Sequence record: OQ174507.1
DNA length: 64,000 nt
DNA from: Escherichia phage REP8
Strand: one strand, 5' to 3'
The notes under the pieces are model-generated. The model was not told the DNA's origin and searched no databases. It saw nothing but the letters and a program-made list of their open reading frames with translations. Positions 2,749 to 62,230 of this stretch are shown piece after piece. Each line of letters opens with the position of its first letter. Position 1 is the first letter of the stretch. Made by a program: the position numbers and the translations under genes.

Positions 2749-4164
2749 ATGAGCGAATTATTTATACATGCGCACCTTCATGCAGGTCGAACTGAAAATG
2801 GTGCTGTAAACCATACTTCATCAATGTCTGCTCTTGTGGACTTTTACAAAGCTGCTGGTTCTAGCCGTAGCAATGTAGAAATCTTACCAGACTTGTTCTA
2901 CAAAGCTTTGCATGAAGATGTTGATGTTGCAGTTCGTATTTTACTGCATATGCGAGATGTACGAGAAGGTATGGGTGAGCGTAAAGCTTTCCGAACTGTT
3001 TTACTTCAAGCGATTGAAGATAAAGTTTTAGAGTCTACGCAGGTTCTTCGCATTATGGATAAGATTGCAGAACTTGGTCGTTTTGATGACTTCAAAATCT
3101 TCGTAGGTACTCGTTTCGAGACAGATGCCTTCAAACATTTAGAAGCAGCATTACTAGACCCTGCAACAGCAGGTTTAGCAGCTAAGTGGTTACCACGAGT
3201 AAAACCACGTCACAAACAGTTTGTAAAACGTTTCTGCAAGTTTGCAAACTTGAGTGAGAAAGAGTACCGCACACTGCTGTCTGCACTATCTGATACAGTT
3301 GAGCAAAAAATCTCTGCTAATGAGTTTGGTAAGATTGACTACAGTAAGATTCCTTCACTTGCTGCTGCACGTTACCAAAAACTGTTTAACCGTAAAGATG
3401 GAGAGCGATACAAAGCTTACATCGAGTCCTTATCAAATGGTGAGACTAAGATTAACGCTGGTGCTGTTTACCCATACGATGTGATTAAATCTGTCAAGTA
3501 TGGTAATGCAGATGTTGCTAATGAGCAGTGGAAAGCACTACCAAACTGGATGGTAGAAGGTGAAAACATCTTGTGTATGACTGATGTTTCAAGCTCAATG
3601 TCTTGGGTGAATCTTGGCTCAATTACTGCCCTTGATATTGGTGTATCACTTGCCTTGTATGTAGCAGAACGCAATACAGGTTGCTTTAAGAACGAGTTGA
3701 TGGTTTATTCAACAAACCCTCACTTCATCGAACTGAGTGGTGATTTACGAAACCGTCATCGTCAGGTGATGCGACACGTTGAATATGGCTCAACTAACTT
3801 ACAAGCAGCTTTTGACCGTATTCTTGAGATAGGTAAAAGAAACAACTTGACTCAGGAAGATATGCCAAGTAAGCTTATCATCTTCTCCGATATGGAGTTC
3901 AATCAGGTTGATGGTGCTAACGGTCGTACAAACTTTGAAGCAATTCAGAGTAAGTACAAAAAAGCTGGATATGAGATGCCACAACTGGTATTCTGGTATT
4001 TAGCAAACCGTAATGGTACTTGCGAAGTATCTGTTAAGGATAACGGTGTAGCAATGGTATCTGGTTTCTCTCCAGCCACTTTAAAAGCTCTGCTTGGTGG
4101 TGAGAAGTTTGACCCAACCAGTGTAATGCTCAAAGCAGTAATGATTGACCGTTATATCTGGTAA
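2749..4164 (+). CDS. vWA domain protein (MIDAS motif), possibly Ro60/TROVE-like
   Basis: 471 aa; DVSSSMS matches the DxSxS MIDAS motif of vWA domains; TROVE assignment is from memory only. Confidence 0.45.
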   Translation: MSELFIHAHLHAGRTENGAVNHTSSMSALVDFYKAAGSSRSNVEILPDLFYKALHEDVDVAVRILLHMRDVREGMGERKAFRTVLLQAIEDKVLESTQVLRIMDKIAELGRFDDFKIFVGTRFETDAFKHLEAALLDPATAGLAAKWLPRVKPRHKQFVKRFCKFANLSEKEYRTLLSALSDTVEQKISANEFGKIDYSKIPSLAAARYQKLFNRKDGERYKAYIESLSNGETKINAGAVYPYDVIKSVKYGNADVANEQWKALPNWMVEGENILCMTDVSSSMSWVNLGSITALDIGVSLALYVAERNTGCFKNELMVYSTNPHFIELSGDLRNRHRQVMRHVEYGSTNLQAAFDRILEIGKRNNLTQEDMPSKLIIFSDMEFNQVDGANGRTNFEAIQSKYKKAGYEMPQLVFWYLANRNGTCEVSVKDNGVAMVSGFSPATLKALLGGEKFDPTSVMLKAVMIDRYIW

Positions 4165-20884: not shown

Positions 20885-28921
<8,037 letters not shown>

Positions 28922-40138: not shown

Positions 40139-40675
40139 TCAACTTAGTTTTGCAAACTCTCCGTGGAGTTTCATAGCAGCTTCACAGTAAGCTTTATGGG
40201 CTTCTTCAGGGGTGTCATGGTGACCTAAAAACATCTTCTTACCTTTATAACTTATCTGTGCGACCCACTTACCAGACTTCTTCTTAAGACTTACACCCTT
40301 GTACCCAGATTTATTGGTGACTGGTTTGCCTTTATTCCAAGCACTTTGAAAGTCATCTGCTTCCCTTAAGTTTACAATCCTGTTGTCAAGTGAGTCTCCG
40401 TTGATATGGTCAATGATACCTTTTGGCATCTTGCCATACACGTAAAGCCATGCGAGTCTGTGTGCTTTATGTGCTTTCTTGTCAAAATAGATACTAATCT
40501 GTTTATGACCACTTGAATCAGTCTGGATATTACCTGCCACCTTTCCTGCATAATTACTGTTAAAAACACTAACAGCTCTTGATTTACCTTCTCTGCGAAG
40601 CCAAGTAAAGACCCCTGTTTCGGGGTCATAGTGTAGTAGCTCCTTTAAACGTTTTTGTGAAATAAAATCCATCAA
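40139..40675 (-). CDS. HNH homing endonuclease with AP2 DNA-binding domain
   Basis: HRLAWLYVYG...GIIDHINGDSLDNRIVNLREA (HNH) followed by GYKGVSLKKKSGKWVAQISYKGKKMFLGHHDTPEEAHKAY (AP2-like); directly adjoins polymerase exon 2. Confidence 0.7.
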   Translation of the reverse strand: MMDFISQKRLKELLHYDPETGVFTWLRREGKSRAVSVFNSNYAGKVAGNIQTDSSGHKQISIYFDKKAHKAHRLAWLYVYGKMPKGIIDHINGDSLDNRIVNLREADDFQSAWNKGKPVTNKSGYKGVSLKKKSGKWVAQISYKGKKMFLGHHDTPEEAHKAYCEAAMKLHGEFAKLS

Positions 40676-49507: not shown

Positions 49508-50548
49508 ATGGAGAAGTACACATTAACAAAACTTCCCGATTCAGTTACACATGTTTTTATTGACTCTGACAGTATTGCCTATAAAGGTGCTTGTGTAGTT
49601 GAGAAAGCAAAATATAAATATGTCAATAAACTCACAGCAGAAGAGTCTGAGCCATTTGATAATGCGAAAGATGCTGCAAGATGGTTAGCAGACCAGAGAA
49701 TCCTTGTGGAAGAGCTTGGTCTGACATTTGATGAAGATGAATGGGAAAGACAGACTTGGAAAGAAGCTAAGAGTGAAAAAGAAGCTATCATGGCTACTCA
49801 ACAGGTGCTTCAGGAATGGCTTAAGGTTGTTGGTAAAGAGAGAACTTGGGTAGGTTATTTAACAGAGAAAGGTGTGCATAAACATAAAGACATTAAAGGT
49901 CTTGAGCACCAATATCAAGGGAACCGTAAAGATGCTGTCACACCAACACACTTAGTTGCTTGTCGTGAATACCTTTTATCCAGACCAGAGTTCAAGCTGA
50001 TTCTTGATGGATTTGAAGCTGACTCTATCGTTATTGCTAAAGCTGAAAAGATGGGAAAAAAGGCTGCCTTAATGAGTATTGATAAAGACCTTCGCCAAGC
50101 TGAAGGGACTTACTGCATTGATATGACCTATGAAAAGTCGCCTTTGATTTTTATTGCTGATAACAACGTTGGTGAAATTTGGGATTGTCCAATAAAATCG
50201 ACACCAAAAGCTAAGAAGACAGTTGGTGTGGGTTTTAAATTCCTTTGTTATCAAGCTGTGGCTGGTGACAATGCTGATAATTATTTTGGTTTAAAGGGCG
50301 TTGGTAAGGCTACTGTAATGAAAGCCCTTGAAGGTAAAAATACTTATAAAGAGTGTCTTGATGCTATCTATGAACTTTATGCTAAGAAAGAGTCATACAC
50401 TTATGTATCATGGGATGGTCAAACAATTACCAGAACACCTTTAGAGTTAATGCAGCAACACTTTTTCTTAGCTTATCAGGAAAGAAATAAGAAAGACGAT
50501 TTTACTTTTAAGAAATATAATTGGGAGCCGTGTATGAATGAAGATTAA
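49508..50548 (+). CDS. probable 5'-3' exonuclease (FEN-like)
   Basis: 346 aa; acidic N-terminal motif FIDSDSIAYK; position in replication module. Confidence 0.4.
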   Translation: MEKYTLTKLPDSVTHVFIDSDSIAYKGACVVEKAKYKYVNKLTAEESEPFDNAKDAARWLADQRILVEELGLTFDEDEWERQTWKEAKSEKEAIMATQQVLQEWLKVVGKERTWVGYLTEKGVHKHKDIKGLEHQYQGNRKDAVTPTHLVACREYLLSRPEFKLILDGFEADSIVIAKAEKMGKKAALMSIDKDLRQAEGTYCIDMTYEKSPLIFIADNNVGEIWDCPIKSTPKAKKTVGVGFKFLCYQAVAGDNADNYFGLKGVGKATVMKALEGKNTYKECLDAIYELYAKKESYTYVSWDGQTITRTPLELMQQHFFLAYQERNKKDDFTFKKYNWEPCMNED

Positions 50549-51035
50549 AGGATTTGGTAATTGCCCCACCTATGGTCATTGGGTATCTTTATGTGGGGAA
50601 GTTGACCCCACTAAACATTTTGGTTTTGTCTATTTAGTACACTGTAAGAAAACCGGACAATATTATATAGGAAGGAAACAGTTTAACAGTGTTACCAAAA
50701 GAAAAGTTGCTGGAAAGACTCGGAAGAAGGTAGTCACTAAGGAGAGTGATTGGATGACTTATGAGACTTCTTCTGAGTATATTAAAAAAGATATTGAGAG
50801 CTTTGGAAAAGAATTTTTTGACTTTTACATTATTCAGACCTACTACACAAAAGGTGGCCTAGTTTATGGTGAAGCAAACCTTCAACATAAGTTCGATGTA
50901 ATGACAAAAAGGATTGACTCGAAGCTCAGACTCTTCTACAATGCCAATATTGCAGCAATTAAGTTTATCACTAAAGAAACTTATGAAGATGCTGAAAAAA
51001 GAATCCATAAGGTAATGAAAGCAAATTGTGCTTGA
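50538..51035 (+). CDS. GIY-YIG endonuclease-like protein
   Basis: 165 aa; FGFVYLVHCKKTGQYYIGRKQ fits the GIY-(8-11 aa)-YIG-R pattern. Confidence 0.4.
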   Translation: MKIKGFGNCPTYGHWVSLCGEVDPTKHFGFVYLVHCKKTGQYYIGRKQFNSVTKRKVAGKTRKKVVTKESDWMTYETSSEYIKKDIESFGKEFFDFYIIQTYYTKGGLVYGEANLQHKFDVMTKRIDSKLRLFYNANIAAIKFITKETYEDAEKRIHKVMKANCA

Positions 51036-56821: not shown

Positions 56822-58018
56822 ATGAACAAAGTACAGATTATTAAAAAGAATGGCTCACTCGAAGAACCTGATATCAAAAAAGTTTTAACAGCAGTCACAA
56901 AGTCAGCTAATAGGGTTGGGTATAAAGAACTCCCGCCAGATGTTACCCAAGCTCTTGAGTCAGCATTTATGAGGGTTCTGGTAAAATCCACTAAGCAGAA
57001 TAATTTACTCGTTTCAGTAAATGATATTCACAGTATTGTTGAGGGTGCTTTGGCAGAAGTCAATCACGAGATTTATGAGTCTTACTCAACATATAGAAAT
57101 TACCGTAAAGAGGTTGCTCAAAACTGGGATGAACTCTACCAGAAGACTAAAGATACACTCTTCTTAGGTGACCGTGAAAATGCTAATTTTGACAGCAGTT
57201 TAATTTCTACGAAAGGTTCAATTATCCGTGGTTACCTGACTAAAGAAATCTTTAAACAGTATCATCTAACACCAGAGGAACTTGAAGCCATTGAGAAAGG
57301 CTTTGTCTATATCCATGATTTAAGAGACCTGATTTTTGGTGGTATTAACTGTTGCCTGTTTGACATTGGTAAAGTACTAAAAGGTGGCTTTGAAATGTCC
57401 GGCATTGAGTACTGTGAACCTAAATCTGTACTGTCAGCGTTGCAGGTTATTGGTGACGTAGTACTTTCAGCAACTGCACAGCAATTTGGTGGTTTTACTT
57501 TAGCAGAGATTGATAAGGTACTTGTACCGTATGCGAAGAAGTCTCTACGCTATCATGCTGAGAAAGCATCATCTTATGGTATCCCTAAAGAGCATTACCA
57601 CAATTATGTCATGGAGCAGCTACAGATTGAACTGACTCAAGGTTTCCAGTCGCTTGAAATGAAACTAAACACTGTACCTTGTAGTCGTGGGGATTTTGCA
57701 TTTACAACTTTGACATTCGGGTTACTTGACTCAGACATGTCTAATGAAGACAACCGACTGCAATACATGATTGCAAGTACTCTCCTAGATGTTCGTATGA
57801 ATGGACAAGGTAAGAGTAAGAAGCCTGTTGTATTCCCTAAACTGGTTTATATTTATGACCAGAAGAGACATAATGAGAATATCTGTCAAGGCCACCTGTA
57901 CAGTAAAGCTATAGAGTGTTGCTCTAAAGCGATGTATCCAGATTTCTTAAGTGTATCTGGTCATGGTGCTGTAGCAGAAGCTTTTGAGCGTTCTGGTAAG
58001 GTTATTTCACCGATGGGT
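56822..58018 (+). CDS. nrdD: anaerobic ribonucleotide reductase, exon 1
   Basis: ATP-cone-like N-terminus; ends ...ISPMG with T as last exon nucleotide; an in-frame TAA opens the intron. Confidence 0.65.
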
Positions 58019-58334
58019 TAACAAGCTCTATAGCTCATCTAAAACGTGCCTAAACAGGGAAACTCTACAGATGTAGACAATCCTGTGCTAAATGATGTAC
58101 GATGTAAGAAACTATACAACATAGGGGTCTTACATGCCAAATAACTTCGAATATGAGTTTGGATACATCTAAATGCCGAACGACTAACCGTGATGAATGT
58201 AGCGGTGTAGGGTCAAGCGACTCGAAATGGTACGCTACTTAGAAATAAGTAGAAGATATAGTCTGGACTTACTGGCGACAGTAAGCAGCTTGAATAAAGC
58301 GGGGTAAGCGTAGCGAACTTACCTGAACAACAAG
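58019..58334 (+). ncRNA. group I intron in nrdD
   Basis: 316 nt; AAGATATAGTCT (S element), GACTAA (R/P7 region), last nt G, preceding exon ends in T; no ORF inside. Confidence 0.6.
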
Positions 58335-59282
58335 TGTAGAGCGTTTTTATCACCATACCATAACGAAGATGGTGAAGAGTTTTATGTAGGTCGTGCTAAC
58401 ATTGGTGCTGTATCTTTGAACTTACCAATGATTTACCAGTACTCTAAAGAGAATGGTTTAGATTTCTGGAAAGAGCTTGATAAGTACCTAGAAATGATTC
58501 GCAGCTTCCACAAGAAACGCTACGAAATGATTGCTAATATGCCAGCAAGTTCTAACCCTCTTGCATTCACACAAGGTGGTCTGTACAAAGGGACTAAGAA
58601 ACCTACTGACAAGGTTGGTTGGGATATCGTGAAGTCCTTCACAGCTTCTTTTGGGGTTACTGCGCTTGATGAGCTATCTGTTCTTGCTGAAGGTAAACGA
58701 CTTCATGAAGTTGGAAGCTGTAGTTTTGCATACGATGTTCTGGAATACATCAACATGAAAACTGAAGAGTTTAAGAACGAAGATGGCTTCTTGTATGCGG
58801 TATATGGCACTCCAGCAGAATCACTTTGCGGAACTCAGCTAAAACAGTTCAGAGATATGTTTGGCGTTATTAAAGGTGTCTCTGACAAGGAATACTTTAC
58901 AAACAGTTTCCATATGAATGTTGCAGCAGACATTACACCATTTGAGAAGCAGGACTTAGAAGAACCCTTCTTTCATATCTGTAGAGGCGGCAGAATCCAG
59001 TATGTAAGGGTAGCTAATCCAGAAAACTTATCAGCACTTAAAAGTTGTATTACAAGAGGGATGTTGAAAGGTTTCTATCAGGGACTTAACTTTGACTTAG
59101 CAATCTGTGAACATTGTGGTAACAGACCAAAGGCTGATGTTGAAGAATGTGAGGTTTGCCATTCACACGATATCTCTGTGATTAACAGGGTGTGCGGGTA
59201 CTTGTCATTCACAAAAATTAAAGGTCAGTCTCGAATGAATGACGCTAAGATGGCAGAAATTAAGGATAGAGTATCTATGTAA
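58335..59282 (+). CDS. nrdD: anaerobic ribonucleotide reductase, exon 2
   Basis: begins CRAFLSP...GRANIGAVSLNLP; C-terminal zinc ribbon CEHCGN...CEVCHSHD and glycyl-radical motif RVCGYLSF. Confidence 0.65.
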   Translation, partial: CRAFLSPYHNEDGEEFYVGRANIGAVSLNLPMIYQYSKENGLDFWKELDKYLEMIRSFHKKRYEMIANMPASSNPLAFTQGGLYKGTKKPTDKVGWDIVKSFTASFGVTALDELSVLAEGKRLHEVGSCSFAYDVLEYINMKTEEFKNEDGFLYAVYGTPAESLCGTQLKQFRDMFGVIKGVSDKEYFTNSFHMNVAADITPFEKQDLEEPFFHICRGGRIQYVRVANPENLSALKSCITRGMLKGFYQGLNFDLAICEHCGNRPKADVEECEVCHSHDISVINRVCGYLSFTKIKGQSRMNDAKMAEIKDRVSM

Positions 59283-61071: not shown

Positions 61072-61392
61072 ATGAGCAAAGTTTATAACACTCGTAAATT
61101 ACAGATTTTCGTACTGTGCCAGTTTATGGCTAAAGAATACAACTTCTACTATTGTGGTACAGGTTTTATTAGCGATGATGATGGCTCATACCTCCCATTC
61201 AAAGAAGCTGTGAAACTCTTTAATGAAGAGAAAAGCTCTAAGAAAGATATTGAAAAGGTTAAGCTAACCTACAGCAAGAAAGATAAGAAGATTATCTGCC
61301 TAGATAACTTTGTAAAAGTTACTGGAGAAGCAAAAGAGTTTATGGATGAGAGTGAGATTTCATTCACAAGCATCTTGAAAGTAGCTCAGTAA
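61072..61392 (+). CDS. hypothetical protein
   Basis: 106 aa; terminator downstream. Confidence 0.35.
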   Translation: MSKVYNTRKLQIFVLCQFMAKEYNFYYCGTGFISDDDGSYLPFKEAVKLFNEEKSSKKDIEKVKLTYSKKDKKIICLDNFVKVTGEAKEFMDESEISFTSILKVAQ

Positions 61393-61404
61393 ACAGATAC
61401 TATA

Positions 61405-61433
61405 AGGGAACTGTAAAGGTTCCCTTTTTATTT
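61405..61433 (+). terminator. rho-independent terminator
   Basis: AGGGAAC-TGTAAAG-GTTCCCT followed by TTTTTATTTT. Confidence 0.6.
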
Positions 61434-61443
61434 TGGAGATAAA

Positions 61444-61959
61444 ATGTATCTGTCAAACCTGAAACGTTCGGCTGCAATGTCAGTGTTAAGACTCAGCTTT
61501 GAGGAACGTCAAGAGTTCATTGACTCCCACCAATACGACCCCTCAAACTCCAATCACATGATTCTCTGGAATCGTGAAAGTGCTCGTGAAAGAGCACTAT
61601 TCCGTTATTACCCACACTACACCATAGACAACCTGTATGAATGTTTTGTTGTGAAGAACACCATTACAGTACTCAATAAACTTTGCAGATACACAGGTAG
61701 TCAATCCTTCACATTAGGCCACCACAAACCTGTTACAAAGGGTGGTGAGCATCACTGTGCAAACTGGTTTATCCAGACTAAACTTGATAACCAGAAGCAG
61801 GGAGATAACCTTCTAAGCACACCTAAGATGACCTACGAAGAACAAGAGAAATATATCAAAAATAATATGCCAGATGTGCTTGACAACAACTATACAGATT
61901 TGGCAATATCTCTCCTGTTGAAGTTCGAGACAGTTTATAGGGCAACTTATAATGGCTAA
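61444..61959 (+). CDS. HNH endonuclease-like protein
   Basis: 171 aa; LGHHKPVTKGGEHHCANWFIQTKLDNQKQGD fits an HNH core. Confidence 0.45.
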   Translation: MYLSNLKRSAAMSVLRLSFEERQEFIDSHQYDPSNSNHMILWNRESARERALFRYYPHYTIDNLYECFVVKNTITVLNKLCRYTGSQSFTLGHHKPVTKGGEHHCANWFIQTKLDNQKQGDNLLSTPKMTYEEQEKYIKNNMPDVLDNNYTDLAISLLLKFETVYRATYNG

Positions 61960-62230
61960 AGAAAAGTGGGAGATTTTACCATTAGTCAGTGAAGGAGGTA
62001 ATGGTTGTGAGATGTACATGATACGTGGTCATGTTCCAGAACCAATTGCACTTGAGATGGTAAACAACTTTACAGATGGTTCTTACAAAGACTTAGGAGA
62101 GCCAACTATAAAGCATCAATGGGTAAAGCCTGTACCAGACAGCACAGGTAACTGTAGTGTACTTTACCACGTTGTAGACCCTGTAAAATGCAAATCTGCA
62201 ATGGCAGTAACAAACGTAACTTTTGATTGA
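61952..62230 (+). CDS. hypothetical protein
   Basis: 92 aa. Confidence 0.3.
   Translation: MAKEKWEILPLVSEGGNGCEMYMIRGHVPEPIALEMVNNFTDGSYKDLGEPTIKHQWVKPVPDSTGNCSVLYHVVDPVKCKSAMAVTNVTFD

Follow-up and report, generated by a model that had tools for sequence, protein, structure and literature searches.

Are the two small nuclease-like open reading frames (ORFs) among the replication and nucleotide-metabolism genes of Escherichia phage REP8 mobile homing endonuclease genes, or do they belong to the resident gene complement of the phage? The question concerns a stretch of 64,000 nucleotides (nt) of this phage (accession no. OQ174507.1; hereafter the window), in which a six-frame listing placed ORF1 at 50538..51035 (165 aa) and ORF2 at 61444..61959 (171 aa), both on the plus strand and with an ATG start. 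An earlier note made from the letters of the window had assigned a GIY-YIG-like N-terminus to ORF1 and an HNH-like core to ORF2, and had counted both among candidate selfish elements. Our comparisons indicate that both are probably real, resident and vertically inherited nuclease-fold genes of the Ounavirinae replication/nucleotide-metabolism region, and not mobile homing endonuclease genes. Both ORF regions were 100% identical to those of Escherichia phages REP9, REP10, REP11, and REP12, and 90–97% identical to those of over 200 further Felix O1-like phages. The window is from a felixounavirus; the taxonomy given for REP9 is Caudoviricetes; Ounavirinae; Felixounavirus, and around both ORFs the window coordinate equals the REP9 record coordinate plus 34842. 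A literature search yielded nothing specific on either protein.

ORF1 was matched in 817 records at 820 places (297 records at at least 60% identity), and ORF2 in 428 records at 428 places, one in each (246 records at at least 60% identity). The 5′-3′ exonuclease gene neighbouring ORF1 was matched in 303 records at 304 places, 257 of these records showing at least 60% identity; this number is lower than for ORF1 because the exonuclease of Erwinia phages was only 54% identical, compared to 62% for their ORF1. Homologues of ORF2 showed 44–52% identity in Erwinia phages and about 40% identity in Phapecoctavirus and Justusliebigvirus, where they adjoin a UvrD-type helicase gene. Both ORFs were present in essentially all Ounavirinae records. 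The gene order was shown to be conserved in Kolesnikvirus (phiEa21-4 and Roscha1), Mooglevirus, Suspvirus, and Felixounavirus, and runs primase/helicase, three small ORFs, a 284-aa ORF, exonuclease, ORF1, a small ORF and a MazG-like gene in the ORF1 part, and NrdG, small ORFs, an ORF of the DUF7390 family, ORF2, a 92-aa ORF, phosphoribosyl pyrophosphate (PRPP) synthetase and nicotinamide phosphoribosyltransferase (NAMPT) in the ORF2 part. Ratios of nonsynonymous to synonymous substitution rates (dN/dS), calculated by the Nei-Gojobori method for the window compared to heid, wV8, Moogle, and phiSUSP1, were 0.03 for ORF1 and 0.11–0.15 for ORF2. Purifying selection on the two ORFs was comparable to that on the flanking replication and nucleotide-metabolism genes (exonuclease, 0.04–0.08; NrdA, 0.01–0.05; MazG-like, 0.08–0.14; PRPP synthetase, 0.10–0.19), and their divergence tracked that of their neighbours.

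We consider it very improbable that the two ORFs are free-standing homing endonuclease genes which were inserted in the replication module and are still active or were so until recently. Three hallmarks of such genes were looked for, namely a DNA-binding module, a sporadic or multi-copy spread and an insertion breaking the gene order, and none was found for either ORF. Single copies, near-universal presence, identical synteny in four genera and strong purifying selection all speak against a homing gene, and the overlap of ORF1 with the exonuclease stop codon is part of the conserved order and not an interruption of it. Set against these observations are the name of the Pfam family matched by ORF1, which comes from the T4 homing enzyme SegE, weaker matches to PHROG 'homing endonuclease' families, several GenBank labels reading 'GIY-YIG homing endonuclease', the attraction of true homing genes to this region, and the fact that ORF2 can be lost and replaced. 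The earlier note had proposed a synteny comparison as a check for insertions that are present in some phages and absent from others; both ORFs turned out to be fixed in the conserved order, and the two genes drop out of its tally of selfish elements. It had also named conserved presence as core genes, along with failure of hidden Markov model (HMM) searches, as what would overturn its assignments; the former was largely observed, and for ORF1 the searches did not fail.

The opposite pattern was shown by the HNH_3+AP2 gene located beside the split DNA polymerase gene of the window, which served as a control. This gene gave strong Pfam matches to both domains and was matched in 2601 records at 4018 places in many unrelated phages; in the records listed, one genome may hold as many as six copies of the family. 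At the same time, it was found at at least 60% identity in 57 records and at at least 80% in 54, compared to about 257 felixounavirus-level records, and it behaves as a genuine homing endonuclease gene. Phages wV8, Felix O1, heid, and Moogle also carry an HNH_3(+AP2) gene inserted exactly at the junction of the exonuclease gene with ORF1, which the window (at about 50540) and phiSUSP1 lack; this is a clear case of a mobile element that some relatives have and others do not. The inserted gene overlaps both the exonuclease gene and ORF1, and the last two exonuclease codons are altered. A further HNH_3 gene lies between the PRPP synthetase and NAMPT genes in Moogle and phiSUSP1, and phiSUSP1 carries a free-standing NUMOD3 endonuclease gene directly after nrdD. 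Around the two flagged ORFs, which stay constant, the real mobile genes come and go.

ORF1 matched Pfam PF19835 (SegE_GIY-YIG) with E = 1.7e-28 and 99.8 bits (cut-off 25) over profile positions 10–123 of 123, and the GIY-YIG motif that had been quoted for it, FGFVYLVHCKKTGQYYIGRKQF, was found at residues 28–49, so that this part of the earlier note stood, coordinates included. The same family was matched by homologues from Moogle, an Erwinia phage and cyanophages (E = 1e-27 to 1e-56). Besides, ORF1 matched phrog_447 (E = 7e-49) and, more weakly, three PHROG 'homing endonuclease' families in their nuclease portion only; the longer homing endonuclease profiles were matched solely at positions 4–115 of 356 and 178–256 of 574. 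A Pfam search at E up to 1 gave no second domain in ORF1, and single-sequence and profile searches against the PDB gave noise only. NCBIfam and PADLOC scans gave nothing useful, the only match of ORF1 being to a group-I-intron endonuclease (E = 0.19), and a defence or anti-defence role was left unsupported by these scans. As judged from the profile matches, the GIY-YIG resemblance of ORF1 is far beyond chance.

Twelve homologues with identities down to 47% were aligned; Y32, Y43, G45, E112, and N135 of ORF1 were invariant in them and R62 was conserved in at least 90%. When the I-TevI catalytic domain, whose sequence was checked against PDB 1MK0/1LN0, was included, Y32, Y43, and G45 remained invariant and E112 and N135 were conserved in at least 90%. 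Residues Y32, Y43, G45, and R62 were aligned by both hhalign and MAFFT with Y6, Y17, G19, and R27 of I-TevI. The hhalign match between the ORF1 family and I-TevI was weak (E = 0.13), ended before the catalytic Glu and was used for residue mapping only, and in the MAFFT alignment E112 was one column off E75 of I-TevI. We equated these two residues because 'GEANL' of ORF1 matches the UvrC-type 'LEANL'; the UvrC motif, which we take to be 'LEANLIKK...YN', resembles 'GEANLQHK...FYN' of ORF1. By this comparison the latter motif is read as the helix carrying the catalytic Glu together with a downstream Asn, and Y32, Y43, G45, R62, E112, and N135 are the putative catalytic residues. The AlphaFold model of ORF1 had a predicted local distance difference test (pLDDT) score of 72.8, residues 111–143 being below 50, and the structural neighbours of this moderate-confidence model were GIY-YIG nucleases.

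ORF1 is named 'NAD synthetase' (NAD, nicotinamide adenine dinucleotide) through phrog_447 and in many GenBank phage records, and a NAD synthetase would suit a phage that encodes PRPP synthetase and NAMPT. We regard this identity as practically dismissed: no Pfam or NCBIfam NAD-synthase match was found for ORF1 at E up to 1, its sole sequence matches and its structural neighbours being GIY-YIG families and nucleases, and the gene adjoins the exonuclease gene at a distance of 11 kb from the NAD genes. Moreover, with 165 aa it is smaller than NadE, which has about 270 aa or more. The cyanophage proteins of the T4-GC213 group likewise matched only PF19835 (E ~1e-56), and as far as these searches go nothing in the sequences supports calling phrog_447 and T4-GC213 'NAD synthetase'. 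The auxiliary metabolic genes listed in a marine transcriptomics paper include a cyanomyovirus 'NAD synthetase', its identity with the gene considered here being unconfirmed (PMC7238727). Some records already label ORF1 'GIY-YIG homing endonuclease'. ORF1 joins an existing Pfam family, and the database error lies in the functional label, be it 'homing endonuclease' or 'NAD synthetase'; domain-level labels of the former kind may lead astray for a core gene that lacks the DNA-binding half. In phage EC6 (NC_027369.1/JX560968.1; 58566–59058), the ORF1 orthologue was matched as two pieces annotated as two 'NAD synthetase' coding sequences, which suggests a frameshift due to a sequencing error or a pseudogene.

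For ORF2, the HNH-like motif was confirmed at its place (LGHHKPVTKGGEHHCANWFIQTKLDNQKQGD, residues 91–121), and the fold was supported indirectly, whereas a direct Pfam match was not obtained: the Pfam scan of ORF2 gave no HNH match, the threshold of the PF01844 type not being reached, and sub-threshold PF01844 matches were seen in 4 of 28 family members (best E = 0.0085). The HMM searches and structure prediction proposed in the earlier note came out differently for the two ORFs, with a significant match for ORF1 and a family profile that reaches HNH proteins for ORF2, and with a well-predicted beta-beta-alpha unit for ORF2 and a less certain model for ORF1. Among PHROGs, ORF2 matched the unannotated phrog_3500 (E = 1e-91) and gave a weak HNH match (E = 2.6e-4). 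A profile search of 1.84 billion representative proteins showed the family to be small (20 clusters), and among its most distant matches were the proteins P0066 (E = 3.5e-7) and P0069 (E = 2.7e-4), which pass the Pfam HNH threshold of 21.4 bits with 45.4 and 25.6 bits, respectively. Comparison of the core ORF2 family alignment with P0069 by hhalign gave a probability of 91.7% (E = 7.8e-7) across 100 columns, the C-terminal helices among them; the corresponding comparison with P0066 was weak (probability 12%).

In 27 diverse members of the ORF2 family, H93, G100, G101, N107, and Q134 were invariant and R48, N78, H103, N116, and Y165 were conserved in at least 90%; the distances between H93, N107, and N116 are those of the classical H-N-N motif. 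The AlphaFold model (pLDDT 90.9) contained strands at residues 89–93 and 108–112 and a helix at 113–119, flanked by N- and C-terminal helices, and in this model H93, N107, and N116 sit on a beta-beta-alpha unit formed by residues 89–119. Weak profile matches in the PDB were mostly to HNH domains (Cas8f-HNH, Gme HNH, IscB, Cas9, McrA, and pyocin AP41), and 8 of the 9 top Foldseek matches of the model in the PDB were HNH domains, none of them individually significant. That the HNH resemblance is coincidental, and that ORF2 is a helical protein of unrelated function, is highly unlikely in view of the hhalign and profile links to Pfam-certified HNH proteins, the coincidence of the motif residues with the invariant ones, the expected beta-beta-alpha unit in the model and the enrichment of weak structural and sequence matches for HNH domains. 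On family profile, hhalign and AlphaFold model together, ORF2 is predicted to be a strongly diverged HNH protein. This assignment is a small new result, the family being unannotated everywhere we looked, and it gives the phrog_3500/VOG1451 family a defensible fold assignment as divergent HNH.

No recognisable DNA-binding module or second Pfam domain was found in ORF2 (Pfam at E up to 1; PHROGs), and the protein has no zinc-binding cysteine pairs and contains 'GH' instead of 'DH'. Our expectation for ORF2 is a DNA nuclease or nickase that depends on metal and represents a new HNH subfamily without zinc; His93 would likely act as the general base, and Asn107 and Asn116 would complete the motif with no zinc finger. 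A T4 EndoVII-type resolvase was considered for ORF2 as well, and no EndoVII match was obtained in any search. The N-terminal helices LSFEERQEFIDSHQYDPSNSN (residues 13–54, window 61480..61605) were matched repeatedly, at a low level, to B-domain repeats of staphylococcal protein A (E = 5e-5 for the whole sequence); since every single stretch was non-significant, this likeness is probably compositional or due to chance.

Conservation and purifying selection demonstrate function and not catalysis, and it is conceivable that both proteins are domesticated relics whose nuclease folds no longer cut DNA and serve as DNA-binding, regulatory or scaffolding factors. The missing zinc-binding cysteines and the 'GH' dipeptide of ORF2, as well as the low confidence in the catalytic half of the ORF1 model, would fit such relics. 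Nevertheless, we hold this to be unlikely, as the positions kept across distant homologues are precisely the catalytic or metal-binding ones, namely Y32, Y43, E112, and N135 of ORF1 (with R62 kept within the Ounavirinae set) and H93, N107, and N116 of ORF2, and inactivated nuclease folds usually lose such residues first.

As resident nuclease-fold genes, the two ORFs were further examined in their immediate surroundings. The last 11 nt of the exonuclease gene overlap the start of ORF1, the ATG being at 50538 and the exonuclease stop codon at 50546–50548, and a GGGAG sequence is located 10 nt upstream of the ATG. With the start of ORF1 inside the last codons of the exonuclease gene, both are probably translated together. 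The same overlap is annotated in Erwinia phage phiEa21-4 and in phiSUSP1. In addition, a 41%-identical ORF1 homologue overlaps the end of a 5′-3′ exonuclease gene in DSS3_PM1 (Naomviridae; locus L018, 88–1174), followed by primase/helicase; the exonuclease-GIY-YIG pair is therefore common to two phage families. We infer that ORF1 and the exonuclease form an endonuclease/exonuclease DNA-processing pair. By analogy to endonuclease I (gp3) of T7, which works with the flap endonuclease (FEN)-like exonuclease gp6, and to T4 endonuclease II, a stand-alone GIY-YIG enzyme that works with exonucleases, ORF1 would introduce nicks or breaks into DNA, either with little sequence specificity or at branched structures, and these would be the starting points for degradation by the FEN-like exonuclease. 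Taken jointly, these two steps are plausible although short of probable. The pair might break down host DNA so that nucleotides can be salvaged, process intermediates of replication and recombination, or do both.

ORF2 belongs to a small phage-only family and stands at the head of the NAD-salvage gene cluster in Ounavirinae. A terminator-like hairpin precedes it, which suggests that ORF2 may open a transcription unit comprising ORF2, the 92-aa ORF, prs (PRPP synthetase) and nadV (NAMPT); in Citrobacter phage Moogle a terminator is annotated at the equivalent place. Promoter scans showed no enrichment over shuffles. The 92-aa ORF overlaps the ORF2 stop codon, and the same arrangement was found in Moogle, phiSUSP1, wV8, heid, and Roscha1. 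At the ORF2 locus of S19cd, SEP1, SP2 and SP4 SHa-2019, and GEP101, an N6-adenine methyltransferase was found; in S19cd and GEP101 it replaces ORF2 past about codon 38 and most of the 92-aa ORF. The methyltransferase cassette shares about 75% identity with the one in Salmonella siphophage S102 and is frameshifted in places. It seems that a methylase gene took the place of a nuclease-fold gene by horizontal transfer, and ORF2 is near-core and not essential. The overlap of ORF2 with the 92-aa ORF, and the largely joint replacement of both in S19cd and GEP101, raised the thought of a nuclease-immunity pair; this was kept as a loose idea only, the small ORF being absent beside the ORF2 homologues in phAPEC8-like phages.

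Just upstream of ORF2, a 106-aa ORF (61072..61392, plus strand) matched Pfam DUF7390 (E = 1e-16). The records of Felix O1, wV8, and heid call it a 'putative HNH endonuclease', a name for which no support from an HNH domain was seen. In the ENA contig protein P0015 (259 aa) this ORF is fused with ORF2, probably by a frameshift or an assembly error.

A broader and more tentative proposal is that the single-domain PF19835 proteins, ORF1 and the nearly ubiquitous cyanomyovirus gene that bears the wrong name 'NAD synthetase' among them, are a domesticated nuclease domain of homing endonucleases that could serve as a general or structure-specific endonuclease where enzymes of the T4 EndoVII or T7 gp3 type are lacking. 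In Ounavirinae and Naomviridae they would be translationally coupled with a FEN-like exonuclease for debranching and/or host-DNA breakdown, and ORF2 would found a zinc-less HNH subfamily with a resident role of its own. Several points limit the roles proposed here for the two proteins, the exonuclease partnership of ORF1 included. This pairing is not universal, as the ORF1 homologues of cyanomyoviruses, Mendera, and Melnitz do not adjoin an exonuclease gene. In REP9, the HNH-AP2 gene is the only annotated endonuclease and a resolvase is missing from the annotation, which is weak evidence for a vacant role because most REP9 genes are labelled 'hypothetical'. No report of DNA modification by Felix O1-like phages was found, and a low-specificity nuclease would therefore need another means to spare phage DNA. 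Since five isolates carry the methyltransferase instead, ORF2 is dispensable at least in culture, and the activities of ORF1 and ORF2 are deduced throughout. If the exonuclease-partner idea is true, ORF1 would be the so far unassigned endonuclease of the Felix O1-like phages, a group with uses in Salmonella typing and biocontrol.

Table 1. Location of the two ORFs, their neighbours and related insertions, in window coordinates unless another phage is named.
Feature	Position	Strand	Evidence or remark
ORF1, single-domain GIY-YIG nuclease-fold protein	50538..51035	+	Pfam PF19835
5′-3′ exonuclease (FEN/RNase H-like)	49508..50548	+	phrog_107, E = 1.7e-65; weak Pfam 5_3_exonuc matches
Shine-Dalgarno-like GGGAG, putative function	50523..50527	+	Read from sequence; within exonuclease 3′ end
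ORF2, predicted divergent HNH (beta-beta-alpha-Me) protein	61444..61959	+	Family phrog_3500
Terminator-like hairpin, then T-run	61404..61426	+	Consensus scan; immediately upstream of ORF2
92-aa ORF, function unknown	61952..62230	+	phrog_4726; overlaps ORF2 stop by 8 nt
HNH_3+AP2 homing gene beside split DNA polymerase gene	40139..40672	-	Pfam
Methyltransferase cassette	S19cd, locus L006, 2501–3591; SEP1, locus L016; GEP101, locus L017		Equivalent to window ~61560..62230
HNH_3(+AP2) insertion	wV8, locus L005, 4001–4525; heid, locus L013, 2539–3054; Moogle, locus L010, 3277–3615		
Cyanophage PF19835 copies	P-SSM4, locus L008, 3893–4381; S-SSM7, locus L009, 3923–4360		

Between the two ORFs, nrdD is annotated as two pieces (window 56822..59282; REP9 21980..24440) with a gap of about 400 bp. 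The gene is undivided, with 2142–2145 bp, in wV8, heid, Moogle, and phiSUSP1, and the split fits the intron proposed in the earlier note.

Compared to known systems, ORF1 is closest to the single-domain PF19835 proteins of cyanophages (T4-GC213), which are like it in size (145–170 aa), in having a single domain and in being single-copy. It showed 31–35% identity to them in MAFFT alignments and 33–40% in local tblastn matches. Unlike the cyanophage copies, ORF1 has an extra N-terminal segment with 'YGHW' and is coupled to a 5′-3′ exonuclease gene. It differs from T4 SegA-G and I-TevI, in which a C-terminal DNA-binding module gives site specificity, by having no linker or DNA-binding domain, by being neither sporadic nor multi-copy, and by leaving synteny uninterrupted. 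T4 endonuclease II (DenA) is likewise a small stand-alone GIY-YIG protein and a resident phage gene; neither sequence similarity nor strong structural similarity was found between ORF1 and this enzyme (PDB 2WSH). T7 offers the same kind of arrangement, with the endonuclease I gene (gp3) accompanying a FEN-like 5′-3′ exonuclease (gp6), and in the replication module around the exonuclease gene and ORF1, the annotation of the primase/helicase points to similarity with that of gh-1, a T7-like phage.

ORF2 shares H-x(6)-GG-x(5)-N-x(8)-N on a predicted beta-beta-alpha unit with classical HNH nucleases (PF01844; the Gme HNH nickase 4H9D; the HNH domains of Cas9, IscB, and Cas8f; McrA), and classical HNH domains were its only recurrent PDB neighbours. 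Unlike these, it falls below the Pfam threshold, has 'GH' and not 'DH', lacks CxxC zinc ligands and carries family-specific helical domains on both sides. With the HNH-AP2 homing genes of Felix O1-like phages it shares an HNH-type motif and the genome region, but none of their AP2 DNA-binding domain, strong Pfam matches, sporadic spread and many paralogues. Neither ORF is a new kind of system.

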